Shown piece after piece: positions 43,839 through 64,000 of a stretch of DNA of 64,000 nt. Positions within the stretch are counted from its first letter, which is position 1; each line of letters opens with the position of its first letter. Source of the stretch: Acidobacteriota bacterium. GTDB taxonomy: Bacteria > Acidobacteriota > UBA890 > WLXD01. Location: the NCBI GenBank assembly GCA_963666215.2, contig CAXWPL010000005.1:256001-320000 (forward strand), in the 5' to 3' direction. The position numbers and the translations under genes were made by a program. The notes under the pieces were generated by a model. It did no database searches, was not told where the DNA came from, and saw only the letters and a program-made list of their open reading frames with translations.

Positions 43839-44024
43839 GACCGGACACCCTTTGTTGACCCTGACCTATAAACCAACCCGAGCCCGCCGAATTCAAGCCT
43901 GACGAGCGCCGCACCCGCTAGGAAGCTAACTCATGCGAGAATCGGCGGCGCTCACACCCGTCGGCGGGAAACGCGCGGACGGGCTCCCGAATCGCAGATC
44001 AGCTTGTATCCAACCGAACACGCC

Positions 44025-48447: not shown

Positions 48448-49655
48448 GCGCGCTCCTCACCCAGCGTGTTCCAGCCGTGGCAATGCGGGCAGCGGGTGAA
48501 CGGCTCGAGGCCGCGGAAGCGACACTCCAAGCAGACGTAGGGCTCGTCGACAAGTCCGTTCACACTGGCGTCGAGCAACTCAGTCAGACGTGCGGCAGCG
48601 GGGTCGTTGCTCTGCGGTGGTCGTCCATTGCTGCCACCGGCCACCCGCCCCTCGGGAGCCGAAGCCAGCGCCCGCCACAGCGCGCGCTGCACACCGAAGG
48701 CGTGGGGGCGCTCGCGCAGCGCCGCCGCCAGAACGTCGCTCGCTCCCTCGGCGTCGCCCCCATGAAGCCGCGAACGGCCGAGGGCCAACGCCGCCCACCA
48801 GGCGCGTGGATCACGCTCCAGGAGCTCGCCACATACACGTTCGAGGGTGGCGAGGGCGCCGCACTCGAGCGCGATATCGCTCAGAGCTTCGACCGCGGCG
48901 CGAGGCCAGGGCGCCGCAGAAGAGGTGGCCGCCGCCAAATGCTTCACGGCTTCGTCTTGCTTCCCTTCGGCGCGCTCCAGAGCGGCAATGCCGACCAGTG
49001 CCGGCGCATATCCAGCGTCGAGGTCCAGTGCCTTTCGGTAGTGATCCGCGGCCCGTCGCGAATCGGACGCTACGAACTGCTTGGCCCACTCGGTGTGCAT
49101 CGCGGGCAACAGGTCGATGTCACCGCCCTCGCCCACGGCTCGTAGTCGCCGGTAGAGCTCGATCGCCTCACCCCAGCGTCCGAACTCCTCGTGGATCCCC
49201 TGCAAACGCCTGAGGCCCGACACGTTGTCGAGGTCGAGCTCCAGAACCTCCCGAAACGTACGCTCGGCACGATCACTGAGCCCGGCGCGGCGGAAGTCCT
49301 CGCCCAACGACAGCAGGATGTGCAGGCGCTCCCCCTCGCTCAGGTCGGGGCGGTGCAGCAAGCTCTTGTGGACCTCGATGGCGCGATCGGCCTGCCCGGT
49401 TTCACGGAAGAGATTTCCCAGTGCGACGTGTGGCTCAAGCGCGTGCGTCTCGTCGTGTACGGCGCGTGCCAGCTCGCGAACGGCCCTGGTGGGCTCCTGT
49501 GAAGCGAGATAGCCGAGCGCCCGCAGGTAGTGCGGGCGCTCGGGCTGCTCCGGCCGACGCGGACGTCGGCGGCGCGACCACAGCTCTCCGATCAGCGCAC
49601 CCACCGCGAGCAGCGCCAACCCCACCCCGATGCTCAGTGGCCAGCTCGAAGTCAT
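48444..49655 (-). CDS. lapB: LPS assembly regulator LapB-like protein
   Basis: N-terminal TM, LGNLFRETGQADRAIEVH, TPRs, C-terminal CLEC...CPHCHGWN rubredoxin. Confidence 0.88.
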   Translation of the reverse strand: MTSSWPLSIGVGLALLAVGALIGELWSRRRRPRRPEQPERPHYLRALGYLASQEPTRAVRELARAVHDETHALEPHVALGNLFRETGQADRAIEVHKSLLHRPDLSEGERLHILLSLGEDFRRAGLSDRAERTFREVLELDLDNVSGLRRLQGIHEEFGRWGEAIELYRRLRAVGEGGDIDLLPAMHTEWAKQFVASDSRRAADHYRKALDLDAGYAPALVGIAALERAEGKQDEAVKHLAAATSSAAPWPRAAVEALSDIALECGALATLERVCGELLERDPRAWWAALALGRSRLHGGDAEGASDVLAAALRERPHAFGVQRALWRALASAPEGRVAGGSNGRPPQSNDPAAARLTELLDASVNGLVDEPYVCLECRFRGLEPFTRCPHCHGWNTLGEERA

Positions 49656-50194
49656 TCGCGAGCCCGCATTTTTTCGAGCAAATCGCCCCAAGCGCCGTGG
49701 GCTTCCACCATGTCGTCAACCAACTCGCGCAAGGCGCCCCGACCACCCGCCGTCTCGGTAACCCAGTGAGCAGCGTCAAGGGCCACCGGATGTGCATCGG
49801 CGACGGCCACCGCCAGTCCGACGCGTTCGAGCAGCGGCACGTCAATCAGATCGTCGCCGATAAAAGCCACCTCCTTCAATTCCAGGCCGCGCTCGGCGCA
49901 AATCCACTCGCCGGCGGCCAGCTTGTTGGTGCAGCCTTGCACGAGTGCGGCGGTGGGCAGCTCGGCGAACCGCCGCGCAACGGCAGCCGAGGTACGCCCC
50001 GTGATGACGGCGATCGGAAGGCCGATGTCGCAGGCGATGTGGACGGCACTGCCGTCGCGCACATGGAAGACCTTGGCCTCCCAGTCGTCGCTACCGTAGA
50101 CAATTGAGCCGTCGGTGAGGACGCCATCAACATCCACCGCCACCAGGCGAATGGATCGCAGGCGCTCCATGTATTCCTCGCGCGTCAGTCGCAT
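49652..50194 (-). CDS. kdsC: Kdo-8-phosphate phosphatase
   Basis: DVDGVLTDG, FHVRDG, ITGR, IGDDLID, GGRGALRE. Confidence 0.94.
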   Translation of the reverse strand: MRLTREEYMERLRSIRLVAVDVDGVLTDGSIVYGSDDWEAKVFHVRDGSAVHIACDIGLPIAVITGRTSAAVARRFAELPTAALVQGCTNKLAAGEWICAERGLELKEVAFIGDDLIDVPLLERVGLAVAVADAHPVALDAAHWVTETAGGRGALRELVDDMVEAHGAWGDLLEKMRARE

Positions 50195-50250
50195 CGGTCC
50201 TGGCCCGCGACGGGTCGACCCACAACTTGCCGGACCACCGCCTGCCCCGC

Positions 50251-51261
50251 TCAAACCATCTGCGTACGCCACAAATCGTGCAGATGCACGACTCCGGCGA
50301 ACGCTTCTGACGAATCGGTGACAATCAGAACCGTGATTCGACGCTCCTCGAGAAGCTTCAACGCTTCGGTGGCAAGCGCGTCGGCCTCGATGCTGACTGG
50401 CGAGCGTGTCATGCAAGCGTCCACCGAAAGTTCGTGCGGTGCGTCGGCGGAGCCTAGCCATCGGCGCAGGTCGCCGTCGGTGACGATACCGGCAACCTCG
50501 CCCGCTTCATCGACCACCACGGTCATCCCCAGACGCTTGGCGGAAATCTCGCGCACAGCGTCGCGCACACTCGATCCCGAGCGCACGAGGGGCACCTGCT
50601 CCCCCGAGTGCATGACGCTGTTCACTCGCAGCAGCCGGCGGCCCAGCGAGCCGCGAGGGTGAAACGACGCAAAGTCCTCGGGACCGAATCCACGCTCGTT
50701 GAGCAGCGCCATCGCCAGGGCATCACCGAGGGCGAGCGCCGCGGTCGTGCTGGCGGTGGGAGCGAGGCCCATGGGGCAGGCCTCGTTGTCGATAGCGACG
50801 TGCAACACCACGTCAGCCTCGCGAGCCAGGGTCGACATCGCCTCCCCGACCAGTGCAATCAAACCTACCTCGAGCCGGCGCATCGCCGGCAGGAGGGCAA
50901 CGAGCTCCTCGGTTTCGCCGCTGTGACTCAGAGCCACCACCACGTCGCCATCGACGATCATGCCGAGGTCGCCGTGGCCCGCCTCGGCTGGGTGCAGGAA
51001 AAAGGCCGGAGTCCCCGTCGAGGCCAGCGTCCCAGCGAGCTTCTTGCCGATAATTCCCGACTTGCCCATGCCGGTGCAGACGATGCGACCCGGGCACTTG
51101 AGCAACATCGTCAGCGCTGCGGACAGTGCCTCCTCGTCGAACTCGGCGGCGAGCTTCGTCAACGCCGCCGCCTCGGTGACAAGCACCTGCCTGGCGATCG
51201 CAAGGCTTTCCGCGCGACGGCCCACAAGTGGTGCCGCGTCAACTCCACTCGCCGGCTTCAT
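50251..51261 (-). CDS. kdsD: Arabinose-5-phosphate isomerase
   Basis: GMGKSG, HPAEAGHGDLG, EACPMGLAPTAST, FHPRGSLG, CBS pair. Confidence 0.95.
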   Translation of the reverse strand: MKPASGVDAAPLVGRRAESLAIARQVLVTEAAALTKLAAEFDEEALSAALTMLLKCPGRIVCTGMGKSGIIGKKLAGTLASTGTPAFFLHPAEAGHGDLGMIVDGDVVVALSHSGETEELVALLPAMRRLEVGLIALVGEAMSTLAREADVVLHVAIDNEACPMGLAPTASTTAALALGDALAMALLNERGFGPEDFASFHPRGSLGRRLLRVNSVMHSGEQVPLVRSGSSVRDAVREISAKRLGMTVVVDEAGEVAGIVTDGDLRRWLGSADAPHELSVDACMTRSPVSIEADALATEALKLLEERRITVLIVTDSSEAFAGVVHLHDLWRTQMV

Positions 51262-52091
51262 GAGCTCCTCCGAGCGCCATCGGCCTGTACGGCATCGTGC
51301 ACCCGCCGCAGCGACGCCAGAAGAAAATCGAGCTCTGCCAGCGGCAGCTGCGTTGTTGCGTCGCTGACCGCGCGCTCCGGCTCGTCATGGACTTCGATAA
51401 AAAGCACGTCCACGCCCGCCGCCACACCGGCGCGCGCCAGCAGAGCGGCAAACCGGCGCTCTCCTCCCGTTTCTCGTCCCAGGCTCGGCAGCTGCAGGCT
51501 GTGGGTCACATCAAGGACGACGGGGTAACCAAAGTCCTGCATGAACCCGAGCCCTTTGAAGTCGACGACCAGGTTGTTGTAGCCGAAGCTGGCTCCGCGC
51601 TCGGTAATCAGCAACCTCTCGTTGCCCGTCGAAGCGGCCTTCTCGACGACATTCCGCATATCCCAGGGGGCCAGGAACTGCCCCTTCTTGAGATTCACCA
51701 CACGGCCGCTCGCCGCTGCGGCGAGCACGAGATCGGTCTGCCTGCAAAGGAACGCCGGGATCTGAAGCACGTCGCACACCTCAGCCGCGGCTCCAACCTG
51801 TTCGACCGTGTGGACATCGGTGAGCACAGGCACGCCCACTTCAGAGCGAACCTCCGCGAGAATCTTCAGGCCAGCCTCGATGCCAGGGCCACGCGCCGAA
51901 TCGACCGCCGTGCGGTTAGCCTTGTCGAACGACGCCTTGAAGACGTATGCCAGGCCGCACGTCTCCGCTGCCGCCGACACGGCCTCGGCCATCCTCAAGC
52001 AATGGTCGCGCGACTCGATCGCGCACGGCCCCGCAATGAGCCCGAGCCCACCGTTGCCGAAAACAACGCTTTCGGAGACCTGCACACCCAT
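51258..52091 (-). CDS. kdsA: Kdo-8-phosphate synthase
   Basis: IAGPC.IES, KASFDKANRT, QIPAFLCRQTD, KKGQF, ERG.SFGY, DVTHS. Confidence 0.96.
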   Translation of the reverse strand: MGVQVSESVVFGNGGLGLIAGPCAIESRDHCLRMAEAVSAAAETCGLAYVFKASFDKANRTAVDSARGPGIEAGLKILAEVRSEVGVPVLTDVHTVEQVGAAAEVCDVLQIPAFLCRQTDLVLAAAASGRVVNLKKGQFLAPWDMRNVVEKAASTGNERLLITERGASFGYNNLVVDFKGLGFMQDFGYPVVLDVTHSLQLPSLGRETGGERRFAALLARAGVAAGVDVLFIEVHDEPERAVSDATTQLPLAELDFLLASLRRVHDAVQADGARRSS

Positions 52092-52228
52092 CGATCGTGC
52101 TCCGTGCCGCCGGTCGCGAGACATCACGCGGCCGCAGCGGCTAGGCGAGCGTCCGAGGTATCGGACCGCGCCGAGGAAGTTGGGATCTGGGACCCATTGG
52201 CGAACCGGAGGGCGTGGAGTCGGCGGCC

Positions 52229-54040
<1,812 letters not shown>

Positions 54041-54895
54041 CTACACAGCGTCATCGTCTTCGATCAGCTTCCGCACCCGCTCCAGATCGGCGGGAGTGTC
54101 CACCCCCGGCGCCACCTCCGGAACTTCGTATGTCTGGATTTCTTCTCCCGCTTCGAGAACGCGCAGTTGCTCGAGACGTTCGCTACGCTCGAGCGAGGAC
54201 GGCGGAATTGTAGCCCACCGCAACAGGGCATTCCGTCGATACATGTAGATGCCGACGTGCAGCCAGTACGGCCCCGGGAGCGCCGGAGCTCCGTCGAACT
54301 CGACCACCGCCCCACCGCCGCCCTCTTCGCCCTGGTCACAGGCCAGCGGACGGCTGGCTCGCCAGACGTTTCGCGGGAAAGGCAGCGCCGCGCGGCTGAA
54401 GTAGAGCGCCCGACCGTTGTGGTCGACGACAACCTTGACGACGTTGGGGTCCCAAAGATCCGCTGCCGCCACGAGCGGCGCGCGCAGGGTGCCGTAGTCG
54501 TGCTCCGAAGCGGCAAAGCTACCCAGCGCGCGGCCCACCGCTTGAGCGTCGAACAGCGGCTCATCTCCTTGAATGTTCAACACCAGATCGGCATCGAGCG
54601 TCGCGGCAACGTGTGCCACCCGATCGGTCCCCGAAGCGAGGTCGCCGGGCGTTTCGACAGCTCGGGCACCCGCGGTCTGAGCCGCGTCGGCGATACGCTG
54701 ATCGTCGGTCGCCACCACGATCTCCTCGGGACCTTCGATGCCACGACAGCGCTCGATAACGTGGGCGATCATCGGGCGACCGGCGAGCAAGGCCAACGGC
54801 TTGCCGGGAAATCGTGTTGAGCCGTAGCGCGCAGGGATCACGGCGACGCAACTCAGGGCACCGACTTCCCCGGACGGCTGCGCGGCCGTGGGCAT
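54041..54895 (-). CDS. kdsB: CMP-Kdo synthetase
   Basis: IPARYGSTRFPGKPL, SGTDR, NIQGDEP, VKVV, ALYFSR, LEQLR. Confidence 0.96.
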   Translation of the reverse strand: MPTAAQPSGEVGALSCVAVIPARYGSTRFPGKPLALLAGRPMIAHVIERCRGIEGPEEIVVATDDQRIADAAQTAGARAVETPGDLASGTDRVAHVAATLDADLVLNIQGDEPLFDAQAVGRALGSFAASEHDYGTLRAPLVAAADLWDPNVVKVVVDHNGRALYFSRAALPFPRNVWRASRPLACDQGEEGGGGAVVEFDGAPALPGPYWLHVGIYMYRRNALLRWATIPPSSLERSERLEQLRVLEAGEEIQTYEVPEVAPGVDTPADLERVRKLIEDDDAV

Positions 54896-54899
54896 CGAT

Positions 54900-55196
54900 C
54901 TAGCCGCGATCGCCGGCCGGCTCGGCGGCGCTGCCTACCGGCCCCGGGGGCAACATCTCTGCCAGCTCCGCCAGAGTGGCATCGAGTAGGGCCTCGGTTT
55001 GATCGTCCGGAATCACGACGTCGAAAACCTCCTCTGCCGCTACCAGCAGATCGATAATCTCCACCGAGGCAAGGCCCAGATCACTCTGCAGGCGAGACTC
55101 CGGGCCAATGTAGAGGGAGCGCTCTCGCAGCATCGGCTTGACCTCGTAGACGAGCTCACCCAGCCGCTGGATGACACCAGGATCGGCGGCGCTCAT
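54900..55196 (-). CDS. Acyl carrier protein
   Basis: SRLQSDLGLASVEIIDLLVAAEEVFDVVIPD; Ser retained but D replaced by A in the DS motif. ATG overlaps the FAAL stop. Confidence 0.8.
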   Translation of the reverse strand: MSAADPGVIQRLGELVYEVKPMLRERSLYIGPESRLQSDLGLASVEIIDLLVAAEEVFDVVIPDDQTEALLDATLAELAEMLPPGPVGSAAEPAGDRG

Positions 55197-56977
55197 GGCA
55201 GCTCGCGGGCCATGTACATCGTGCGGCACTTCGCGCGGCACCGCTTACCGCTGGTGGTGCGCGGAATCCGACCGCGCTCCACCAGCACAACGTCGAGCAA
55301 CGGGAGGCCCATACCGTCGGCGACCGCCTCACGGATCGCCGCAGCGACGCCACTTCGGCGACCGTTGTCGGAGCCGGCGGGGGCGGCGGCACGCCCGTTA
55401 CCGTTCGCCGGTGAAGCGACGACAACGATCCCCTCTCGGTCCCCGTCGTCGACGCCGAAAGCCACAGCGCTGCCGTCGCGAACCTCTGCAAGGCCCTCGA
55501 CCACCCACTCGATATCTTGCGGGTAGATGTTGCGGCCGTCGACGATGATCAGCTCCTTGGCCCGCCCGGTCACGAACAACTCGCCGTTGCGAAAAAAGCC
55601 CAGGTCGCCGCTATGCAGCCAGCCGTCGCGAAGCACCTCCGCGGTGGCGCGCTCGTTGTCGAAGTACCCCGACATCACCGAGTCGCCCGCGATGACGATC
55701 TCGCCAATCGTGCCGTCGGGAACCGGGAGTCCGTAGCAATCGAGAATTCGAACCTGCATGGCGCCGATCGGCTCGCCAACCCCGACCAGCACCAGGTCGC
55801 CGCTAGCGTGACGCGTGGCTTCGCTTACAAGGCCCGCGTTCTCGAACGAATCGCGCTCGCAACGCAGCAACGTATGGCGGCGATCAACCTCTGATCCGGT
55901 GACCATGAGTCCGACTTCAGCGAGCCCGTACGCCGGCGTGAAAGCCGTGGGCGACATGCCGAGGGGCTCGAACGCGGCCGAGAACGACTCGAGCAGATAG
56001 GGGTCGATCGGCTCGGCACCAACAATCGCGATGCGCCAGGCGTCGAGTCGCTGGCCGCCTGGGCGGCCGCGACGCAGCAGGTGTCGGTAGCTGGCGTTGG
56101 GTCCGGCGGTAGCCGATACACGATGGCGCTCCATGATCTCGAGCCAGCGGCGAGGACGACGCAGAAAGCCGAAGGGAGTCGTCATCACCAGGCTCATACA
56201 CGCGGCGGTGGCCGACAGGAGGTTACCGATCAGCCCCATATCGTGGAACAACGGCAGCCATCCACCGCCAATATCTTCAGGCGTGACGCCCAGATGGTCG
56301 ACGATGGCTCGGACGTTGGCCATCACCTGGCGGTTCTCCAGCACAACACCGCGCGGCGCCGACGTGCTGCCGGAGGTGAACTGAATCAGGCAGACGCGGT
56401 TGGAAGCGTCGTCACCGGCCGGGGAGCCCTCGGACCACGGCGTCGACAATGCCGCGCCGCAGGCCGGCTGTAGCTCGTCAGCGCGCAGCAAGGCACCGCC
56501 CTCCAGGTCGGCTGCGGCCACCAGTTCGTCGTCAACTCGAGCGAGCGCCTCGTCCACCAGAACACGCCGCGGCCGAGCCACTCGCAAGACGCCGCTCGCG
56601 TGCCGAACGTAGCTCGCCAGTCGCCGACGGCCGACCGGGGTCGGCAGAATGCTCGGCTGCAGGCCTCCCATCTGCGCCGCGAAAAACGCGGTCACGAGGC
56701 CGCGTAGATCGCCCAGTAGCAGGGCGATCCGATCGCCCGACTGCAGGCCGGTCCCGCGCAGGCGCCCCGCCATCTCGCCAGCCTCGTCGAGTAGTTGCGG
56801 CCAGTTCTGCCGCCGTTCCTCGCCGCCATCGACGTAAATCAGCCCGCGCTCTGGCTCCAGGCGCGCGGCGCGCTCGAGCAGGTCCGAAATCGTGCGAGGC
56901 TGGTCGCTCGGCAAGGCCGACTCATCCGAGAGGTGTCGGCCGGGCGTTGCAAGGCTTGTGAGTCGGCTCGGGGTCAC
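55193..56977 (-). CDS. Fatty acyl-AMP ligase (FAAL)
   Basis: QFTSGSTSAPRGV, WLPLFHDMGLIG, GAEPI, YGLAE plus FAAL-type insertion, GRAKELII..GRNIYPQDIE, RTTSGK. Confidence 0.92.
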   Translation of the reverse strand: MTPSRLTSLATPGRHLSDESALPSDQPRTISDLLERAARLEPERGLIYVDGGEERRQNWPQLLDEAGEMAGRLRGTGLQSGDRIALLLGDLRGLVTAFFAAQMGGLQPSILPTPVGRRRLASYVRHASGVLRVARPRRVLVDEALARVDDELVAAADLEGGALLRADELQPACGAALSTPWSEGSPAGDDASNRVCLIQFTSGSTSAPRGVVLENRQVMANVRAIVDHLGVTPEDIGGGWLPLFHDMGLIGNLLSATAACMSLVMTTPFGFLRRPRRWLEIMERHRVSATAGPNASYRHLLRRGRPGGQRLDAWRIAIVGAEPIDPYLLESFSAAFEPLGMSPTAFTPAYGLAEVGLMVTGSEVDRRHTLLRCERDSFENAGLVSEATRHASGDLVLVGVGEPIGAMQVRILDCYGLPVPDGTIGEIVIAGDSVMSGYFDNERATAEVLRDGWLHSGDLGFFRNGELFVTGRAKELIIVDGRNIYPQDIEWVVEGLAEVRDGSAVAFGVDDGDREGIVVVASPANGNGRAAAPAGSDNGRRSGVAAAIREAVADGMGLPLLDVVLVERGRIPRTTSGKRCRAKCRTMYMARELP

Positions 56978-57055
56978 GCGCTGGCTCCGACGATTTCGCG
57001 TCAGTCTGACTCGGGGAACCCGGAACGACGTCGGTCCAAGGCGGGGTCGAGAAAC

Positions 57056-58330
57056 TCAGGCCACGCCGGCAGGGGCGATCGCGGCATGCCGAGCATAAAC
57101 CAACGACCAGGCGTCTTCCGTATCGGCGCCGGTGATCAGCAACCCGTGGTTGGTGAGCCCGAGGATCGTTCGGTCCGGATCCTCGGTCCGGCTCAGACCG
57201 TCGACGATCGAATCGCACAGCTCCACGGTGCCGCACGGGTAGTGGTTGTCGGTGTACACAATGTCGTCGAGCTCGGCGTGAATGTGGATCATCGAGCCAA
57301 TCTTCGGGTAGGCGTCGTAGATCACGGCGTGAATCGACGTATCGATTGAGGAGCGCGCCTCGTCGTACCCGGAAGGAACACGCAAATAGACCGCGCGCTC
57401 ATCCCTATCGAACCGATCGATGTAGACCAGGTCGCGGCCAATGACATCGAGGGCGGCCTTGTCGACACCTCGGCCGGTCATCCAGAAGCCCGTCCTACCG
57501 GGCTCGCGAGCGCTCATGTTGCCGTAGCTGATCTGCCGCAGCCCGAGCACCTTGAAGTAACGCCGCCGGGCGCGCCCCGACAGCCCGTCCAGCGGAACCG
57601 CCGGCGGCACCAGATCGAGACCGTCAAGGCGCCGCGCGACGTCCTGTATCGACGCCGTCACGGCTGTTCCGGCACAAAGATCGGCTGCCAGATCGGTGCT
57701 GACGACGTTGTCGTCGATGTAGGTAACGTCGGAGCGCCGCACGAGAGTGAGAAACAGCTCGTCGAACAGCTCTGCCGTTGGGCCGCACGATGAATCGGAA
57801 TCAGGCTCGCCTTCAGCGGCGACGCGCTTGGTGCCAACGACCGTCTCGATACCACGCTCCGGGGTCACCAGCGTTAGCAGCAGCTCGTTGGAGTCATCGC
57901 CGGTGCCCTCGACATCGATGGCCAGATTCGCCATCACCGTCAGACCGGCCTCGTAGGCGCGCACAACTTTCGCGCCTTCACCGGAGCCCGGCTCTCCGAT
58001 ATAGATCAGCCCGATGAAATCCTGGTAGCTGCGGCGCACGATTGGCAGCCGCGACGCCACCATCGGATCGTCCATCACAGCCAGCGTGACATCGGCCTGC
58101 TCCAGCGAATCGGCTGGAAGGTCGAGCAGCTCGTAGCGGTCGGACTCCGCGAAGCGCCAGCGCAACTCGGACGCGAAACCCTGCAACATCGGTGAGCTGC
58201 TGGGTGCGAACAGGCGGACCGTCTTCATGTCGTCAAACCTAGGGAACTCGCTGCGAATCACCCGGTGCTGCCGGATGACCGCGGCCTCGTTTCGTTCGCG
58301 GAAGCGGGCCAACACCGACCGTACAATCAA
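57056..58330 (-). CDS. Class II aldolase/adducin-domain protein with long uncharacterised N-terminal domain
   Basis: C-terminal YGNMSAR, SSIDTSIH..IY, HIH and NHG motifs; about 250 N-terminal residues not recognised. Confidence 0.75.
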   Translation of the reverse strand: MIVRSVLARFRERNEAAVIRQHRVIRSEFPRFDDMKTVRLFAPSSSPMLQGFASELRWRFAESDRYELLDLPADSLEQADVTLAVMDDPMVASRLPIVRRSYQDFIGLIYIGEPGSGEGAKVVRAYEAGLTVMANLAIDVEGTGDDSNELLLTLVTPERGIETVVGTKRVAAEGEPDSDSSCGPTAELFDELFLTLVRRSDVTYIDDNVVSTDLAADLCAGTAVTASIQDVARRLDGLDLVPPAVPLDGLSGRARRRYFKVLGLRQISYGNMSAREPGRTGFWMTGRGVDKAALDVIGRDLVYIDRFDRDERAVYLRVPSGYDEARSSIDTSIHAVIYDAYPKIGSMIHIHAELDDIVYTDNHYPCGTVELCDSIVDGLSRTEDPDRTILGLTNHGLLITGADTEDAWSLVYARHAAIAPAGVA

Positions 58331-58373
58331 CAGGCATCGCGGTCGGCCCGGGGATGTGAAGCGGCAACAGTAT

Positions 58374-59324
58374 CTATTTCGGCATTCTCAGGCGCAATCC
58401 GCCTGGCAGCACTCGGAGCCTTCCGGGCAAGCGGCCCGGGATCTCCCCGTCGAGCTCCACGGCTACCGCCTCACCCTCGAGACTGAGCTCGGCGCACTCC
58501 AAATAGGTGACAGCCGGGTGATCGGTGCCCGTCCCTTTCATCAGGCGCGGCAGTTGCCGCAGCGCTTCAAAGGTCGGCATCGAGCCAATACAGGCGATCG
58601 CCAACAGCCCACTTCGCAGGTCGGCGTCCGGGCAGGGGCGCATGCCACCGCCGAAGAACGGACCGTTGCAGACCGAAAGGTTGAGCACGGCCGCGGAGTG
58701 GGCGTCACCCTCGTCGGCCGCCAAGCTCAGCTCGACGAGTTGTGGGCGCAGCAACTCCAATGCCGACGCGATGACGTAGGCCGGCGCGCCCATCGCGCCG
58801 AGCAGCCGCGAACTCGCCACACGTTCGGCAACCGTCGGGCCGAGTCCGATGTTGGCGGCGTTGAGGAAGTACTTGGTAATTCGACCATGATCCGTACTGA
58901 GGTCAGCTACCCCCACATCGACGAGCATCTCGTAGCCCTGCGGCAGGCGGCGCAGGTTGTCCAGCGGGTCGGGCGACAGCCCGAGTCCACGAGCGAAGTC
59001 GCAGCCGGTCCCCATTGGCACGTGGGCCAACGTCGGCGCGTCCTGCGACTCGGCCCCCAACAGCCCGTTGACGACCTCGTGCGCCGTGCCATCGCCGCCA
59101 ATTGCGACAACCAGGTCCACGCTGCTGGCCGCTGCCGTTCGCGCCAGGTCGGTGGCATGGCCGGGCCCGTTGGTCAATTCAACCCGAACGTCATCGCGTG
59201 ATTGGCGATCGGAGCCGGAATCGCCGGCGGCGGGCCAGCCGTTGAGAATCTCTCTCACCGACGCGACGCGCTTGCCCGCACGCCCGCTGGCAGCGACGGG
59301 GTTCAGGATGACAACCGTGCTCAT
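58374..59324 (-). CDS. Diacylglycerol/lipid kinase family protein (DgkB/YegS/sphingosine kinase fold)
   Basis: VILNPVA, GGDGT.HEVVNG, P.GTGCDFAR, NGPFFGGG, LDGE. Confidence 0.92.
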   Translation of the reverse strand: MSTVVILNPVAASGRAGKRVASVREILNGWPAAGDSGSDRQSRDDVRVELTNGPGHATDLARTAAASSVDLVVAIGGDGTAHEVVNGLLGAESQDAPTLAHVPMGTGCDFARGLGLSPDPLDNLRRLPQGYEMLVDVGVADLSTDHGRITKYFLNAANIGLGPTVAERVASSRLLGAMGAPAYVIASALELLRPQLVELSLAADEGDAHSAAVLNLSVCNGPFFGGGMRPCPDADLRSGLLAIACIGSMPTFEALRQLPRLMKGTGTDHPAVTYLECAELSLEGEAVAVELDGEIPGRLPGRLRVLPGGLRLRMPK

Positions 59325-59754
59325 GATCTCCTCGCGACCACGCAACATCCGAGCGCTCGTGGCTGCTCTCGCCCGCTCTTGACGACACGACAGGCGGAAA
59401 CCTATCGTAGCTCCGACCGCGGTCGTGTGAACGACGGCGTGGCGAGCGCGTTGCGTGGGAAGAACGCGTGTGCGTGGTCAATACATTCGGGAAGCCATCA
59501 TTCATACCTATCGATCATCCTCCTGCTGATGGTTCCTCTTGGGCTTCGGCCCTCGTAGGCCAATCAACCAAGAACAGCCCGCGCGCTCGCCACAGCAAGC
59601 CGTCGGATTTTTCCCTCTGGGCAAGGGTTCCCGTGCGCCTGGCGCCGGGGCCAGCGCTGTCGCGGCCCGTCGATTGCCTGGAAAGAGCCCTCCGTGCGAA
59701 CGGAGAAGATCCTCTTGGGCTGCGCACGGGCCGAGGCCGCGCGTAGGGGGAACT

Positions 59755-60927
59755 ATGCGTCCGATCCGGATCGCAATCGTCGGCGTGGGCAACTGCGCCA
59801 GCTCGTTGCTGCAGGGAATCGAGTGGTACCGCCGCCGGTCCACCGACTTCGCTACGCGCGACGCGGTGCGCGAAGAGCACCTCGGCCTGATGAACTACGA
59901 GATCGGCGGCTATCGGCCGTTCGATATCGAGGTGGTCGCCGCATTCGACGTCGACGGCCGCAAGGTCGGCCTGCCCGTCGAAGAGACGATTTTTTCGCCG
60001 CCCAACAACACGATGGTGCTGCAGCGTGATCTGCCCGCCACCGAGGTGTTCGTGCAGATGTCGCCCGTTCTCGATGGGGTGGCCGAGCACATGGCTGATT
60101 ATCCGGACCGGCAGACATTCGTTGTTGCCGACGAGCCGGCCGTCGATGTGGAGCGAGTGCTGCGCGCCAGCGGCGCCGAGATCCTGCTCAACTACCTGCC
60201 CGTCGGCTCCGAGGCGGCGACTCGATTCTATGCCGAGTGCGCGCTCAACACCGGAACGTCGTTCATCAACTGCATTCCGGTATTCATCGTGTCCGACGAG
60301 GGCTGGGGCCGGCGCTTCGCCGAGTCCGGAATCCCCTGCGTCGGAGACGAGATCAAGGCACAGGTGGGCGCCACGATCACGCACCGCGCGCTAGCTCGAC
60401 TCATGGTCGAGCGCGGCGCCCGGCTTGACCGCACCTATCAGCTCAACACCGGTGGCAACACCGACTTCCTCAACATGCTCAACCGCGACCGACTGGCGTC
60501 GAAGAAGATCAGCAAGACGGCGGCGGTGGCCTCACAGCTGCCGTATGAGATGTCGCCCGACGACATCCACATCGGCCCCTCCGATTTCGTGCCGTGGCAG
60601 AAGGACAACAAGCTCTGCTTTCTGCGACTCGAGGGGCGCGGCTTTGCCGGCTTCCCGGTGGAGATGGAGCTGCGACTGTCGGTGGAGGACTCGCCCAACA
60701 GCGCCGGCTGCTGCGTCGATGCCATCCGCGCCTGCAAGCTGGCGCGCGATAGAGGCATCGGAGGACCTCTCGAGGACATCTCGGCGTACCTCATGAAGCA
60801 CCCGCCACGACAGATGACCGACGACCATGCCCGACGACGAGTCGAGGCCTTCGTTAGCCACTCTCCACCGACTGACCTACCTTCGCCCGACAGCGATCGC
60901 GTGGACCTGGCGCACGCGACGGCGTAG
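59755..60927 (+). CDS. ino1: myo-Inositol-1(3)-phosphate synthase
   Basis: IAIVGVGNCASSL, YLPVGS, FINCIPVFI, YQLNTGGNTDFLNM, SKKISKT, DSPNSAG. Confidence 0.95.
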   Translation: MRPIRIAIVGVGNCASSLLQGIEWYRRRSTDFATRDAVREEHLGLMNYEIGGYRPFDIEVVAAFDVDGRKVGLPVEETIFSPPNNTMVLQRDLPATEVFVQMSPVLDGVAEHMADYPDRQTFVVADEPAVDVERVLRASGAEILLNYLPVGSEAATRFYAECALNTGTSFINCIPVFIVSDEGWGRRFAESGIPCVGDEIKAQVGATITHRALARLMVERGARLDRTYQLNTGGNTDFLNMLNRDRLASKKISKTAAVASQLPYEMSPDDIHIGPSDFVPWQKDNKLCFLRLEGRGFAGFPVEMELRLSVEDSPNSAGCCVDAIRACKLARDRGIGGPLEDISAYLMKHPPRQMTDDHARRRVEAFVSHSPPTDLPSPDSDRVDLAHATA

Positions 60928-61067
60928 TCTCCCGGGGGCCGTCAAAGGGGCGCTGGCCGCCCCTTCGGCGGTCAGCCGAGAACCGCCGACGTCTACCAGT
61001 TATCCGATGCCTCTCGAGATCCATTAGGGGCTCAGCATCGAGCCTCTCGCGAGGCCTCCGACACAGC

Positions 61068-61664
61068 ATGATCAGTCACTCCATCGCACGCTTCTTCCAG
61101 GCGCTGAAGGCCGCTATCGCCAAGGCGGTCAGTTCCATTGGAATCCATCCGAACTTCATCACCGTCTCATCGCTGTTCCCGATGGTGATCGCCGCCTGGG
61201 CTCTTTCCGAAGGACGTCTGGTGACCGCCGGGCTCTGGATCATCGCCGGCGGCGCGCTCGACCTGATCGACGGCGCGGTGGCGCGGCTCTCGGGCAAGGC
61301 GACGCCATTCGGTGGCGTGCTCGATTCAGTTGTCGACCGAGCCTCCGACACGCTTCTGTACGTGGGCGCGGTCCTCTACTTCGACCGCATCGGCGAGCCG
61401 CTCTACGTCGGTCTCAGCGCCATCGCCCTGGGCGGAGCGCTGGCCGTCTCGTACACCCGGGCGCGCGCCGAGAACGTCATTCCCGAATGCGAGGTCGGCT
61501 TCTTCGAGCGCGGCGAGCGCATCGTGCTGCTGTTGCTCGGATTACTGGTCAACCGCCTGCCCCAAGCCATCCTGTTGCTGGCGGTGCTATCGTGGCTCAC
61601 GACCGTGCAGCGATTGATCCATGCTCACCGCCACATCAGCGCGACAACAGCTCAGGATCGATGA
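61068..61664 (+). CDS. CDP-alcohol phosphatidyltransferase, probable phosphatidylinositol-phosphate synthase
   Basis: HPNFIT, DLIDGAVAR...FGGVLDSVVDR..D signature, VSYTRARAE, ER.ER; follows ino1. Confidence 0.9.
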   Translation: MISHSIARFFQALKAAIAKAVSSIGIHPNFITVSSLFPMVIAAWALSEGRLVTAGLWIIAGGALDLIDGAVARLSGKATPFGGVLDSVVDRASDTLLYVGAVLYFDRIGEPLYVGLSAIALGGALAVSYTRARAENVIPECEVGFFERGERIVLLLLGLLVNRLPQAILLLAVLSWLTTVQRLIHAHRHISATTAQDR

Positions 61665-61734
61665 CCGCAACTTCAACGCCGGGAGGGCGGCCGCCAAGAA
61701 CGGCCAACCAGAGGCATTACCAAGGATCCTCCTG

Positions 61735-62664
61735 ATGACTCAGATGCGCCTATTCGGGGCCCTCGTGGTGACGCTGTTCGCATCGGCCATCTTCACGTCG
61801 GCCAGCCCTCGCGGGTCGACGCCACGGTCGGCGGTTGCGGCTGCACAGAAGTTCTACGTCGCCGACGGCACGGGTTCTGGCAGCAAGGTCGCAGGTGATT
61901 GCGACTCCAATCCGAGCGAATTGTCGGTGCTCAGCTCAGGCTCGGGCAAGCTGAAGAAGATCGGCGACATCGACTTTAACCGGGTTTCCGCGATCGATGT
62001 TGGACTCAACGGCAAGCTCTACGGCGTGGGCGAGAAGAGCAACTGCGACATCGCCTTCATCGAGATCAACACGGACAACGGTCAGGGCACCGAGATCAGG
62101 ACAATCGGGAACGCGCAGGACGACGACAACATCGAAGCGGTCACCGACATGACAGTGCGGAACGCCAAGGAGTTCCTGCTGCACACGTTCGCGTTCAGCC
62201 CCCCGGTTGAGGACCTTCGCCGGATCAAGATCAAGAAAGGCAAGCTCAAGAAGGGGCTGGGTGTAGCCAGTGCCGATTGCTGTGGCGAGGGCCTCGCGCA
62301 CGTATCCAAGAAAGCTGCCGGCCGGTTGGGTTTCGAACAGCCGGCCGCAGTGACACACAACCCAACGCCAACGCCGAAAGAGCCGAAGGGCCTGTGGATT
62401 GTCAACGGCACGGCTGCGGAGCGCTACAAGAAAAAGGGCGCACCGGTGTCGTCGGCACCGATGGACTATGGACCCTTCGGCAAGGGTGCGCGGGTGAACG
62501 CCATGGACCGGTGCCGGGACCAAAAAGTCTACGGGCTGGTCAACGTCGGCGACGGCGGCCCCGAGCGTGAGCCCGGCCTGGTACTTCTCGACCTGGCAAC
62601 TGCCACGTTGCAGCTCGTGGTGCCCGAAGTCGTCGGCGGTGACGCGCTGGCCTGCATCGACTAG
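61735..62664 (+). CDS. Hypothetical secreted, Lys-rich, beta-propeller-like protein
   Basis: Signal peptide; recurring blade-like motifs (KLYGV...IEINTDNG, KVYGL...LLDLATA). Confidence 0.65.
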   Translation: MTQMRLFGALVVTLFASAIFTSASPRGSTPRSAVAAAQKFYVADGTGSGSKVAGDCDSNPSELSVLSSGSGKLKKIGDIDFNRVSAIDVGLNGKLYGVGEKSNCDIAFIEINTDNGQGTEIRTIGNAQDDDNIEAVTDMTVRNAKEFLLHTFAFSPPVEDLRRIKIKKGKLKKGLGVASADCCGEGLAHVSKKAAGRLGFEQPAAVTHNPTPTPKEPKGLWIVNGTAAERYKKKGAPVSSAPMDYGPFGKGARVNAMDRCRDQKVYGLVNVGDGGPEREPGLVLLDLATATLQLVVPEVVGGDALACID

Positions 62665-62709
62665 CTTGATCCAACGGCGCCAGATCGCCTCGACACGCTG
62701 GGGGCGAAG

Positions 62710-63684
62710 CTAGGCGGGTAGCGGGGCCGCCATGTAATGCTGGGGCTTGCGCTGATCGATCGCCGACGCGCGCCGCACACACCCGACGGTGCACGACGGC
62801 GCGCAGCCCTTGGGCGTGTGGTACTCGCGCTCGAGGTCGGCGCGGGTGTACTCGAGTAAGGCGGTACCCGGCTCGCCCCGACGCTGGCTGCAGTACGAGA
62901 CGTCGCCGAACTCATCGATGTACAGGTAGCGAGCGCCAGCGCGGCACTTCCAGTTGGAGATGCCGTCGCTCAGCATGTCGCGCTCCCAGCCCTCGCCGAA
63001 GCCATGAAAAAAGCTCTTCTTCGAATTGCCATGGATCTCGTGGTACAGCTCCGGCAGATCGGCACCGAGAAGCCCCGCGTCGAGCTGGCCCTCGTCGTCG
63101 TGCATCAACCCGACGGTCATGTAGAAGCCGAGCTCGCGAACTCCCGCAACGACCTCACGAGTTTCTTCCGGCGAGCAAGAGCCGAGCACCGCGTTGACGT
63201 TGACCGCGAACCTGGCGTGCTCGACCAAGAGCTTCAAGCGCCCCTTGAGACGCGACCAGGACTTCTGCGAGATCTCGTTGGGTTCGACATTGTCGATGGA
63301 GATCTGCAGCAGCGTCAGCCGGGCCTTGTTGAGGCGCTCGATCCAGGTCTTGGTGAGCGGGTAGCCGTTGGTGATCGAGGTGCACACCATGCCGAGCTTC
63401 ACCGAATGCGCAATCACCTCATCGACCTGCGGATGAATCATCGGCTCACCACCCGTGAGCGTCACCGACACGGTGCCGAGCTCACGCAGCTTGTCGAGCC
63501 TCTGTTTCAGAACGTCGATCGGGATCGGCGCCGAGACCTGGTCGTACTCGTTGCAGTAACCGCACGAGAGATTGCAGCGACGCGTGACGACGATCTGCGT
63601 CTGCAGCGGGACGTACGGATCTCTGAGGGCGCGCAGAACACCGCGCGTCGCACCGAGAAACGGCTGGGGTATGAGTCGCGCCAT
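62710..63684 (-). CDS. Radical SAM protein with C-terminal Cys-rich (Twitch/SPASM-like) domain
   Basis: CNLSCGYC, TGGEP, ITNG, ISID; C-terminal CRAG...DEFGDVSYC...C..SC...C. Confidence 0.92.
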   Translation of the reverse strand: MARLIPQPFLGATRGVLRALRDPYVPLQTQIVVTRRCNLSCGYCNEYDQVSAPIPIDVLKQRLDKLRELGTVSVTLTGGEPMIHPQVDEVIAHSVKLGMVCTSITNGYPLTKTWIERLNKARLTLLQISIDNVEPNEISQKSWSRLKGRLKLLVEHARFAVNVNAVLGSCSPEETREVVAGVRELGFYMTVGLMHDDEGQLDAGLLGADLPELYHEIHGNSKKSFFHGFGEGWERDMLSDGISNWKCRAGARYLYIDEFGDVSYCSQRRGEPGTALLEYTRADLEREYHTPKGCAPSCTVGCVRRASAIDQRKPQHYMAAPLPA

Positions 63685-63744
63685 GGTGTTGCGCCCTTGC
63701 CGCCGCAGCTGCGGCATGCGGTACCGGCCAATCGAGTCGGCCGG

Positions 63745-63900
63745 TCAGGCTCCGGGGAGCAGAAAGAGTAGCAGGATGATCAGAGCGCAGATGACGTCGT
63801 ATTGCCACGAACCACGGGGCCAGTTGAGGAACAGCCAACGTCCGGTCGAACCCCACATCGCCAACCCTCGGCGGGTGTCGGTTTGCGCGCGCTCTGTCAT
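63745..63900 (-). CDS. Small single-TM membrane protein (about 51 aa)
   Basis: Hand-translated MTERAQTDTRRGLAMWGSTGRWLFLNWPRGSWQYDVICALIILLLFLLPGA; alternative start at 63858. Confidence 0.6.
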   Translation of the reverse strand: MTERAQTDTRRGLAMWGSTGRWLFLNWPRGSWQYDVICALIILLLFLLPGA

Positions 63901-64000
63901 CGGATCGAATGCTTTCTCGGCGGCTTCTCGTACAGGTGCGGGTACGCGAGTCTATACGTTGGTCGCCAGATGCAGACTACATGCTGCGCGCGACAATGAA

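Follow-up and report, generated by a model that had tools for sequence, protein, structure and literature searches.

A probable composite envelope-lipid locus in an Acidobacteriota genome, with an inositol pair, a lipid kinase and an inserted aldolase-fold module

Introduction

In the mycobacterial and Bacteroides type of phosphatidylinositol pathway, MIPS is followed by a PIP synthase (PgsA1 or BT_1523) and then by a PIP phosphatase; the product of Ino1 is inositol-1-phosphate. A YegS-type kinase and a Kdo operon form no part of the phosphatidylinositol clusters described in the accessible portion of PMC9246714, in which the string 'Acidobacteri' has 0 occurrences. In Caulobacter a single region unites a DAGK-family ceramide kinase, a CDP-alcohol transferase, an ACP and an acyl-ACP synthetase, according to the accessible portions of PMC11324152 and PMC10331486.

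Here we analyse a locus that brings related functions together in an Acidobacteriota genome (G000), within a stretch of 64,000 nucleotides that we call the window. A first-pass annotation had proposed that its lipid genes jointly build or recycle an unusual inositol-containing lipid, in a combination that it did not recognise as a described pathway. Literature searches found no printed description of this gene combination, of the module around the aldolase-domain protein, which we call AldD, or of the two-domain architecture of AldD. On balance, our observations favour a composite envelope-lipid locus over one dedicated pathway, a locus that includes an inositol pair, an order-wide kinase pairing and an inserted module.

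Results

The genes of the locus are listed in Table 1. The first-pass annotation had described a minus-strand run of kinase, aldolase-domain protein, FAAL and ACP, divergent from ino1 and a CDP-alcohol transferase, with a radical SAM gene close by, and all of these were recovered in place. It had also reported no PKS, NRPS or acyltransferase; open reading frames were chosen by a GC3 criterion and Pfam matches listed only at E <= 1e-5, and among those called across the whole window the corresponding families number 0. The Kdo genes lend support to its description of the host as an LPS-making diderm. A near-identical copy of the region (0.97-0.99 of sampled words) is found in contigs of eight runs from three studies, and the region is therefore no assembly chimera; none of the RNA runs contains it. 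Operon signs are evident: the FAAL stop overlaps the probable ACP start as ATGA, and a gap of 4 nt separates the ACP stop from the kdsB start. The two back-to-back sigma-70-like sites in the divergent intergenic region are the only ones in the 15 kb scanned (49000-64000); their count is not above that of shuffles (1.2 +/- 1.0), and only their position is suggestive. Two further genes complete the plus-strand side and its flank. The hypothetical protein has tblastn matches in 0 of 20 related loci and is probably outside the system. The radical SAM gene, whose best NCBIfam match is PqqE at 65 bits (cut-off 381), adjoins the transferase in loci L029, L034, L048 and L052 and is absent there in L049-L051, L053 and L025, and is a variable neighbour.

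Table 1. Features of the locus, numbered from the first nucleotide of the window
Feature	Coordinates	Strand	Basis and remarks
kdsD, arabinose-5-phosphate isomerase (SIS+CBS)	50251..51261	-	Pfam; distal operon gene; syntenic in f1 and f2 loci
kdsA, Kdo-8-phosphate synthase (DAHP_synth_1)	51258..52301	-	Pfam
pyrG, CTP synthase	52229..53935	-	Pfam
kdsB, CMP-Kdo synthetase	54041..54895	-	NCBIfam NF003952 267 bits (cut-off 193), TIGR00466 191.7 bits (cut-off 155.2)
Putative dedicated ACP (divergent)	54900..55196	-	NCBIfam ACP models below cut-off; GL(A/T/S)S motif
FAAL (fatty acyl-AMP ligase)	55193..56977	-	PF00501; FAAL models and solved FAALs best
AldD, two-domain CoaB-like and class II aldolase-fold (modelled)	57056..58228	-	Pfam, AF2, Foldseek, VIA
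LipK, YegS/Rv2252/BmrU-type lipid kinase	58374..59348	-	TIGR00147; first gene of the minus-strand operon
Divergent intergenic region	59349..59754	.	sigma-70-like sites 59379-59431
ino1 (myo-inositol-1-phosphate synthase)	59755..60927	+	PF01658; extra locus-embedded copy
AIPS/PIPS-like CDP-alcohol phosphotransferase (putative phosphatidylinositol-phosphate synthase)	61068..61664	+	NCBIfam, solved relatives
Hypothetical protein, hydrophobic N-terminal stretch	61621..62664	+	no Pfam/NCBIfam match
Radical SAM protein, subfamily not assigned	62710..63717	-	PF04055

Judged by their sequences, Ino1 and the CDP-alcohol transferase appear to be a known, standard inositol-phosphate/PIP-synthase pair. 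The ino1 reading frame spans 59539-60927, with a probable start at M73 (59755). Its product carries the MIPS domain (PF01658, 115.7 bits, Pfam cut-off 27) and scores 423 bits with TIGR03450, under the cut-off of 638, so that it is not the mycothiol-type equivalog; it is one of three MIPS genes in G000. The transferase matches PF01066 (E 3.3e-16) and holds the motif D(x)2DG(x)2AR...G(x)3D(x)3D, which reads LDLIDGAVARLSGKATPFGGVLDSVVDRASD in the translation. Equivalog cut-offs are not reached (NF040950 154.7 bits against 180, NF045883 115.2 against 170, NF052561 86.6 against 350), and the PgsA, Pss and Cls models give E values of at least 9e-6 and 16-26 bits, far below the AIPS/PIPS scores. Among solved structures it scores best against mycobacterial PIPS; its solved relatives are PIPS 6h53 (4e-16) and 5d91/5d92. 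The earlier assignment as an inositol transferase thus holds, in that the protein groups with AIPS, PIPS and then DIPPS, not with PgsA, Pss or Cls. Among 401 Acidobacteriota genomes, 229 have a PIPS-like gene and 235 a MIPS gene, and the presence or absence of the two agrees in 28 of 30 itemised families (the exceptions are f12 and f23). Within the order the transferase is found in 23/26 genomes and MIPS in 21/26, with both in all 12 high-quality genomes. Phylum-wide co-occurrence with MIPS ties the transferase to a source of inositol-1-phosphate. Genes for a PgpA-family phosphatase and for CdsA are present elsewhere in G000.

The kinase LipK combines DAGK_cat (PF00781) and YegS_C (PF19279) domains and scores 149 bits with TIGR00147, above the cut-off of 118.65, which places it among YegS/DgkB-type kinases; its GGDG motif (G84 G85 D86 G87) is invariant. 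Used as a query against its own genome it retrieves only itself and is the sole YegS-type gene so found. We compared the window's own family (f1, 10 genomes) with a sister family (f2, 15 genomes) in an order of 26 genomes including G000, the LipKs of which form one clade (support 100/97). Among relatives, 16 loci are informative, and 15 of them show the transferase divergent from LipK (10/10 in f2, 5/6 in f1); at 15/16 informative loci of the order LipK is the first gene of an operon continuing into kdsB-pyrG-kdsA-kdsD. In the rest of the phylum, 20 PIPS loci show neither kinase nor MIPS alongside (0/20); the pairing, confined to one order, could be inherited synteny without shared function. 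Insertion of ino1 between the two halves is seen in only two of the 26 genomes, G000 and G106, and the order's usual MIPS copy sits elsewhere in the genome. Of the linkage between the divergent halves that the first-pass annotation had proposed, the part joining the transferase to the kinase operon stands in two families, and the membership of ino1 and of AldD-FAAL-ACP is not general. Could the genes presumably co-transcribed with kdsB-pyrG-kdsA-kdsD instead serve LPS, the FAAL and ACP providing lipid A with an uncommon acyl chain while the kinase and AldD modify an LPS precursor? The kinase at the head of the Kdo operon and the short distance from the ACP to kdsB speak for such a role, which we nevertheless hold to be very unlikely: the window is without an acyltransferase, kdsB-pyrG adjoins the transferase outside the order in only 1/20 loci, and AldD-kinase modules also occur in the monoderm, Gram-positive Thermoactinomycetaceae and in lipid contexts very unlike this one.

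Behind the kinase lie AldD, the FAAL and the putative ACP. The FAAL has an AMP-binding domain; FAAL models rank highest for it in NCBIfam, and none reaches its cut-off (NF006624, 384 bits against 600). Each of the 14 best solved relatives is a FAAL or a FAAL domain and aligns over the full length (3pbk, E 1.5e-73), and solved acyl-CoA ligases match at 1e-21 to 1e-26, mostly over the C-terminal part only; over its full length the protein is closest to FAALs, not to acyl-CoA ligases. The ACP reading frame covers 54900-55241 with a probable start at 55196. Pfam, PP-binding included, gives nothing at E <= 1e-3, and the ACP models of NCBIfam reach E 5.6e-8 and 32.6 bits, where the cut-offs are at least 70; all 13 orthologues (13/13) retain the serine of the GL(A/T/S)S motif, a candidate phosphopantetheine site. 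The transferase, Ino1, the FAAL and the ACP all score under the curated NCBIfam equivalog cut-offs.

AldD, as modelled, is a new protein of two domains: an alpha/beta N-domain resembling CoaB/PPCS takes up roughly residues 1-175, and the C-domain has a class II aldolase fold. Its reading frame spans 57056-58330; homologues begin with MKF or MKT and are about 360-370 aa long, which makes M35 at 58228 the probable start. The match to Aldolase_II (E 6.7e-16) is confined to positions 9-92 of a profile of 183. In the AF2 model (pLDDT 89.2) the C-domain resembles AraD and FucA (Foldseek, 1jdi E 3.6e-8 and 2opi E 6e-8), and the N-domain resembles CoaB (VIA, Z 11.7-9.1 in the best 6 matches), with an rmsd of 2.9 over 139 residues at the best of these, Z 11.7. 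Without exception, 49 sequences share residues D296, H315, H317, H361, G236, N237, S239 and R241, within the motifs GNxSxR, SxD, HxH and NHG, and in the alignment with AraD the D and HxH fall on AraD PSSD...HTH, positions which we take to be the AraD metal ligands. By fold and motifs the C-domain belongs to the class II aldolase/AraD/MtnB superfamily, with a putative Asp and HxH...H metal site and a putative phosphate-binding GNxSxR. Placement in a characterised subfamily (FucA, AraD, MtnB, RhaD, OtnC or NovR) was considered and rejected, the best NCBIfam match being mtnB at 27.8 bits against 137 and the Pfam match covering half the profile. Relatives with a DFP(CoaB)+Aldolase_II fusion exist, as does a decarboxylase-AldD fusion. 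On reading the translation no obvious CoaB glycine-rich loop is apparent in the N-domain, and when its profile was compared with that of one DFP fusion protein, the match fell short of significance (probability 5%).

How is this module distributed? Within the order AldD occurs in 13/15 f2 genomes, in 0/10 f1 genomes and in G000, and AldD-FAAL-ACP is likewise found in 0/10 genomes of f1, all ten of which have the transferase, with an adjoining kinase in 5/6 loci fetched. AldD-FAAL-ACP is an insert behind the kinase, present in the order only in the sister family and G000. We surveyed 80 AldD loci, which represent nine phyla or more; 67 of these loci are from outside the order. A LipK homologue is no further than 7 kb away at 54/80 and at 40/45 of those with enough flank, and the YegS-type kinase is AldD's constant partner across many phyla; in the Anaerolineae loci the kinase is not in view. 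An ACP and/or a FAAL stands beside AldD at 18/80 loci (ACP 17, FAAL 16), a PIPS-like gene at 10/80, all in this order, and ino1 at 1/80. Outside the order the count for a PIPS-like gene or ino1 is 0/67. From these counts it follows that the module is not inositol-specific; it is a conserved, widespread, uncharacterised lipid gene set.

These distributions bear directly on the single pathway that the first-pass annotation had in mind. In the version weighed here, a backbone derived from the FAAL, ACP and AldD would be phosphorylated, CDP-activated and given an inositol-phosphate head. The attraction of a single pathway is that all the genes are packed round one divergent region, where both of the promoter-like sites in the 15 kb scanned are located, that the arrangement is kept in 10/10 informative sister-family loci, and that the only ino1-inserted genomes of the order, G000 and G106, both have AldD-FAAL-ACP, their AldDs being sisters at 98/92. 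We nonetheless judge it unlikely. Beyond the scarcity of inositol genes beside AldD, AldD-bearing Acidobacteriota outside the order have a PIPS-like gene in 1/9 and MIPS in 2/9, f1 genomes have transferase, kinase and MIPS but lack AldD-FAAL-ACP, and the AldD-SDR-kinase operon of the Thermoactinomycetaceae stands bare. On the counts 2/26 (ino1 insertion), 0/10 (AldD-FAAL-ACP in f1) and 0/67, joint construction of one inositol lipid by all these genes is not supported.

A sphingolipid system of the Caulobacter kind was also weighed, in which the FAAL and ACP would act like AasR and AcpR in feeding serine palmitoyltransferase, the kinase like CpgB and the transferase like CpgA, the product being ceramide phosphoinositol. 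The genome search for serine palmitoyltransferase suggested earlier did return an Spt-like gene, with NF047600 as its top match, in a row of G000 genes at C1:276762-280274 with a GNAT-like 380-aa gene and an NAD-epimerase-family gene; the GNAT-like gene occurs in 10/10 f1 genomes, and the Caulobacter region unites the corresponding lipid functions. However, the Spt-like score of 436 bits is below the cut-off of 640, the GNAT-like gene is found in 0/15 f2 genomes despite their kinase, transferase and FAAL-ACP, f1 genomes with the Spt cluster have no FAAL-ACP at the locus, and CpgC-/CpgD-like genes are absent from the window. The word 'aldolase' has 0 occurrences in the accessible text on the Caulobacter cluster (PMC11324152). 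This reading is improbable in our estimation. Membership of a Caulobacter-type cluster was itself rejected, with Spt, bCerS and CerR absent from the window and the GNAT-like gene not co-distributed.

Discussion

How might the parts of a composite envelope-lipid locus act? The transferase would move a CDP-activated lipid onto inositol-1-phosphate and so give a phosphatidylinositol-phosphate-type lipid. Since the transferase stands back-to-back with the kinase that heads the Kdo/CTP operon, the supply of this anionic inositol lipid and that of the LPS core are probably co-regulated. In the inserted module, the FAAL would adenylate a fatty acid and load it onto the translationally coupled ACP, and AldD would then work on the acyl chain carried by the ACP. 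The CoaB-like domain of AldD may serve to dock a nucleotide or the phosphopantetheine arm, and a small phosphorylated ketol, for example DHAP, would occupy its metal and phosphate site, which resembles that of AraD and FucA. The kinase would phosphorylate the lipid alcohol so formed. The chemistry of AldD is a guess, as its fold family also includes epimerases, dehydratases, decarboxylases and iron oxygenases.

Carried further, AldD and the YegS-type kinase, here with a FAAL and ACP of their own, might constitute a new lipid-backbone route, the product of which, in this order, would be phosphorylated and then given an inositol-phosphate head. In such a route an aldolase-type metal site would couple a fatty acyl chain on the ACP to a C3 phosphate unit, and neither PlsB/PlsY-type acylation nor serine palmitoyltransferase would take part. 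The complementary distribution of the Spt/GNAT-like cluster (f1) and AldD-FAAL-ACP (f2) would fit alternative routes. We regard this proposal as a long shot; if it is true, an anionic outer-membrane lipid is made in step with Kdo in this order.

A composite locus of this kind can be set beside several known systems. Like the mycobacterial and Bacteroides pathway, it has a MIPS and an AIPS/PIPS-type transferase, with a PgpA-family gene in the genome; it differs in that the transferase falls under both curated cut-offs (154.7 against 180, 115.2 against 170) and that no phosphatase or IPC-synthase gene adjoins. Its transferase is divergent from a YegS-type kinase/Kdo operon, unlike the phosphatidylinositol clusters in the accessible portion of PMC9246714. 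With the Caulobacter ceramide-(di)phosphoglycerate cluster (CpgA, CpgB, AcpR, AasR), as set out in the accessible portion of PMC11324152, it has in common a DAGK-family kinase beside a CDP-alcohol transferase, accompanied by a putative dedicated ACP and an adenylating enzyme to load it; both are envelope-lipid loci of bacteria with LPS. In contrast to that cluster, Spt, bCerS and CerR lie outside the locus, with no bCerS-like gene found in the 15 genomes of the sister family; no CpgC- or CpgD-type gene is present here, AldD has no counterpart in the part of the Caulobacter account available, and the head group is predicted to be inositol phosphate. The full-length FAAL, translationally coupled to a putative small carrier protein, recalls the FAAL-ACP pairs of polyketide and lipopeptide pathways (FadD32, E. 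coli FAAL 3pbk), but the window is without a PKS, an NRPS or a condensing enzyme, and the downstream partner is an aldolase-fold protein. The fold and the metal and phosphate motifs of the AldD C-domain are those of the class II aldolase/AraD/MtnB superfamily. Its N-domain is closest to CoaB (phosphopantothenoylcysteine synthetase), although recognisable CoaB sequence motifs have been lost from it, and distant relatives fuse a true DFP to Aldolase_II. Unlike class II aldolases and CoaB, AldD has a gene context of lipid, not of sugar or coenzyme A.

RESULTS

A kinase-led Kdo operon and its inserts

By sequence and context, the lipid kinase gene (LipK) stands at the head of an operon that continues into Kdo and CTP genes. 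The ACP start at 55196 overlaps the stop of the fatty acyl-AMP ligase (FAAL) gene as ATGA and 4 nt separate the ACP stop from the kdsB start, which supports a single minus-strand operon. The region between LipK and ino1 holds two back-to-back sigma-70-like sites, the only ones in 49000-64000, a number that is no excess over shuffles; the listed sequencing runs containing the region include no RNA runs. The first-pass annotation had proposed that the kinase, an aldolase-domain protein (AldD), FAAL, ACP, Ino1 and a CDP-alcohol phosphotransferase jointly make or recycle an unusual inositol-containing lipid. It described the gene content correctly: the named genes are present in this 4.65-Mb, 65% G+C genome, and PKS, NRPS and acyltransferase families are absent from the ORFs called across the whole window, C5:256001-320000. 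The radical SAM gene adjoins the transferase only in some relatives (G039, G255, G106 and G225).

Features of the window, of its genome and of comparison loci (L)
Feature	Position	Strand	Remarks
PF03706 protein	42813-43838	-	lysyl-phosphatidylglycerol-synthase transmembrane domain
Class II aldolase	44004-44822	+	canonical, full-length; Aldolase_II E 2.6e-45, profile 2-183 of 183; outside AldD's subfamily, unrelated
kdsB, pyrG, kdsA, kdsD, HAD-family gene	downstream of ACP, in that order	-
ACP-like ORF	54900-55241	-	small
FAAL	55193-56977	-	solved relatives: top 14 rows all FAALs
AldD	57056-58330	-	half a Pfam class II aldolase match
LipK	58374-59348	-	YegS/Rv2252/BmrU-type lipid kinase; TIGR00147 149 bits, cut-off 118.65
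ino1 (MIPS copy 1)	59539-60927	+
CDP-alcohol phosphotransferase	61068-61664	+
Hypothetical ORF	after transferase	+	not conserved
Radical SAM gene	62710-63717	-	no assignable subfamily
Polyprenyl synthase, LolA	L001:1977-3873		past window end, beside radical SAM gene
MIPS copy 3	C5:557 kb		order-wide type
MIPS copy 2 cluster	C5:776114-779750 (L047:9124-12745)		outside window, at C5:776 kb
Spt-like trio	C1:276762-280274 (L144:6762-10274)		outside window
Type B clusters	L078:4215-12600, L041:3836-13274		examples; range L077-L137
AldD-SDR-YegS kinase operon	L071:9755-12516		and seven further Thermoactinomycetaceae loci
AldD runs with aminotransferase	L038:4400-13769 (G274), L036:4279-12075 (G312)		other Acidobacteriota

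Within the order, the linkage of the two divergent halves holds for part of the locus. In the sister family (f2), LipK-AldD-FAAL-ACP-kdsB is found in 11/11 loci fetched and the transferase is divergent from LipK in all ten that reach far enough, but ino1 lies between them only in the genome G106. In the window's own family (f1), the transferase faces LipK-kdsB-pyrG-kdsA-kdsD in five of six loci, while AldD, FAAL, ACP and ino1 are missing from the locus in 6/6, and AldD was found in 0/10 genomes other than the one studied here. What the order conserves is therefore the transferase paired divergently with the kinase-led Kdo operon, and AldD-FAAL-ACP and ino1 are inserts.

The AldD of this genome is sister to that of G106, inside the f2 clade (98/92), while its kdsD, kdsA, pyrG, kdsB and transferase are each nearer f1, which suggests lateral gain of the insert. 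The order's kinases form a single clade (100/97) with long branches for those of f1. With groups named after a tree had been seen, a kinase clade of this genome and G106 was rejected (p-AU 0.005), and its grouping with all f1 (p 0.25) or with all f2 (p 0.29) was allowed. The kinase tree is compatible with a shared history but does not confirm it. Transfer of ino1-kinase-AldD-FAAL-ACP as a single block from a G106-like donor was discarded, since the kinase pairing is rejected despite the sisterhood of the AldD proteins.

The inositol pair

The transferase scores best with the model of archaetidylinositol-phosphate synthase (154.7 bits); bacterial PIP synthase (115.2), the BT_1523 type of Bacteroides (86.6) and DIPP synthase (49.9) come next, against 16-26 bits with PssA, ClsA and PgsA, all these scores being under the curated cut-offs. 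Its nearest solved structures by sequence are the mycobacterial (6h53, 4e-16) and Renibacterium PIPS, and then AF2299 and IPCT-DIPPS. The genome also encodes CdsA and a PgpA-family gene. We interpret the two genes as a pair in which Ino1 supplies a PIP synthase. The PF03706 protein is encoded 17 kb away from the inositol genes, and a homologue, BT_1521, is reported close to the inositol-lipid clusters of Bacteroides (PMC9246714).

Across the phylum, a PIPS-like gene occurs in 229 and a MIPS domain in 235 of 401 sampled genomes, tallies that include two unpublished genomes, G049 in both searches and G024 in the MIPS search alone; no claim depends on either. Both or neither are present in 28 of 30 itemised families (exceptions f12 and f23). 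The two genes are normally unlinked: no MIPS gene lies within about 9 kb of the PIPS gene in any of 20 loci outside the order. A query with the window's Ino1 protein found ino1 in 2/26 genomes of the order, as if the transferase had no inositol source there; this idea was overturned by a Pfam search, which found MIPS in 21/26. The same search gives three MIPS genes in the present genome. Copy 2 adjoins an IMPase-family gene, an IS5 transposase and an IPCT/DIPPS-like bifunctional gene (260.8 bits with NF041135, cut-off 580). The cluster could serve to make di-myo-inositol-phosphate as a solute, or a lipid synthase that depends on CDP-inositol. CDP-inositol serves ether-lipid synthesis in Rhodothermus.

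AldD is a predicted two-domain protein of a small family

Because AldD homologues all begin MKF or MKT and measure 355-375 aa, the start is probably M35 at 58228. An AlphaFold model built from 49 homologues is confident (pLDDT 89.2, pTM 0.86). The C-domain has a class II aldolase fold, matching AraD (E 3.6e-8) and then FucA, pyruvic oxime dioxygenase, TqaM and NovR. The motifs GNxSxR, SxD, HxH and NHG are invariant and align with AraD's PSSD...HTH, which we take to be its metal ligands. Modelled alone, the N-domain (pLDDT 89.9) is nearest to the phosphopantothenoylcysteine synthetase CoaB, with Z 11.7-9.1 in the top six VIA rows; from about 8.9 downwards the matches are generic flavodoxin-like folds. 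This likeness is supported by weaker relatives in a library of 1.84 billion proteins, P0141 and P0151, in which a true Pfam DFP (CoaB) domain is fused to Aldolase_II. A profile comparison of the N-domain with one of these, P0141, was not significant (probability 5%), and Foldseek with the N-domain alone returned weak, mixed matches. Another relative, P0003, is fused to an Orn/DAP-decarboxylase-like domain. In this library about 140 representatives of the family pass E <= 1e-30, and 406 pass E <= 1e-10; as modelled, AldD is a compact, well-folded protein of a small family.

The AldD module across phyla

Eighty loci with an AldD alignment were fetched and sorted into five contexts.

Contexts of AldD
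Context	Loci	Taxa	Gene order
A	13	this order	transferase divergent from LipK-AldD-FAAL-ACP-kdsB
B	39	Ignavibacteriota, Bacteroidota, Aminicenantes, Calditrichia, Planctomycetia and others	LipK, PEMT+DUF3419 (BtaA-like), hypothetical, Orn/DAP-decarboxylase-like, AldD, MacB, ABC
C	15	Thermoactinomycetaceae, Gemmatimonadota	AldD-SDR; followed by LipK in 8 loci
D	5	other Acidobacteriota	ACP-AldD(-FAAL); some also with transketolase-like gene, Asp-type aminotransferase, SDR, Lgt-like gene
Alone	8	Anaerolineae, Acetothermia	AldD

A lipid kinase is AldD's recurrent partner in no fewer than four gene contexts across many phyla. A LipK homologue lies within 7 kb in 54/80 loci, and in 40 of the 45 whose flanks reach 6 kb or more upstream and 3 kb or more downstream. 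Within that distance ten of the 80 have a PIPS-like gene, all type A, and one has ino1; in the nine AldD-bearing Acidobacteriota genomes outside the order, a PIPS-like gene occurs in one and MIPS in two. The module is a lipid-context unit built on AldD and the kinase, not specific to inositol. The joint inositol pathway of the first-pass annotation is a possibility for this order that the distribution of the module does not favour.

The type B cluster of seven to eight genes includes a 390-aa hypothetical protein, a MacB-type permease, an ABC ATPase and sometimes Omp85; in one protein, P0003, the decarboxylase is fused to AldD. The cluster has the look of an undescribed route to an amino-lipid, exporter included. 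Its SAM-using BtaA-like neighbour is the reason why an MtnB role in methionine salvage was considered for AldD; the role was dropped, as the three other cluster types have no SAM enzyme. The bare AldD-SDR-kinase operon, flanked by unrelated sporulation and Suf genes, occurs in the cultured Gram-positive Melghirimyces, Kroppenstedtia, Paludifilum, Salinithrix and Marinithermofilum. In two other Acidobacteriota, runs of a transketolase-like gene, an Asp-type aminotransferase, YegS kinase, ACP, AldD and FAAL, opposite an SDR gene and an Lgt-like gene, suggest an amino-functionalised long-chain lipid made without Spt. The aminotransferase of one run (L038) was considered as Spt and rejected on its NCBIfam assignment to the Asp-aminotransferase type.

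Could the locus kinase, transferase and FAAL-ACP instead form a sphingolipid system? Spt, bCerS and CerR make up a ceramide synthesis trio. Elsewhere in this genome, an Spt-like alpha-oxoamine synthase gene stands in a row with genes for a 380-aa GNAT-like protein and an NAD-epimerase-family protein, adjoining MlaC, an outer-membrane efflux protein and an MMPL transporter; this is likely a ceramide synthesis cluster. The trio, as traced by its GNAT-like gene, also occurs in 10/10 f1 genomes. In Caulobacter, one region combines a ceramide kinase of the DAGK family and a CDP-alcohol transferase with an ACP and an acyl-ACP synthetase (PMC11324152). Yet f2 keeps the kinase, transferase and FAAL-ACP with the GNAT-like gene in 0/15 genomes.

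DISCUSSION

We favour an AldD-kinase lipid module set beside an Ino1-PIP synthase pair. How might the module work? Sequence and context show Ino1 with a PIPS-type transferase, and a FAAL coupled with a carrier protein of its own. FAAL would load a fatty acid onto the ACP, and AldD would use the acyl-ACP, its CoaB-like domain fitting a phosphopantetheine or nucleotide ligand of the kind that the CoaB reaction involves; AldD's metal site may also receive a phosphorylated C3 ketol. LipK would then phosphorylate a lipid alcohol, and CdsA with the transferase might place inositol phosphate on the module product, or simply on a diacylglycerol-based CDP-lipid. The link to the Kdo operon hints that the outer membrane is provided with anionic lipid and LPS core in a coordinated way.

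The literature searched yielded no description of the AldD-kinase module, with or without FAAL-ACP, no publication on class II aldolase, lipid kinase and FAAL together in Acidobacteria, only unrelated work for the BtaA/aldolase/DAG kinase/ODC combination, and no genes of this kind in work on 'glyceroyl alkylamine' biosynthesis. AldD is a defined target for lipid discovery. Since it is compact and well folded as modelled, has a recurrent kinase partner and is carried by cultured bacteria such as Melghirimyces and Kroppenstedtia, its product should be reachable by ordinary knock-out or expression and lipidomics, and the Thermoactinomycetaceae carriers are the most tractable hosts.

The inositol pair, as we read it, belongs to a known kind of system. 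Inositol lipids are described as relatively rare in Bacteria in the consulted part of PMC9246714, where the name Acidobacteriota has no occurrence and the breadth in the phylum goes unmentioned. Of the 401 Acidobacteriota genomes sampled, more than half have MIPS together with a PIPS-like transferase, which makes the phylum a large and unstudied pool of bacteria that probably produce inositol phospholipids.
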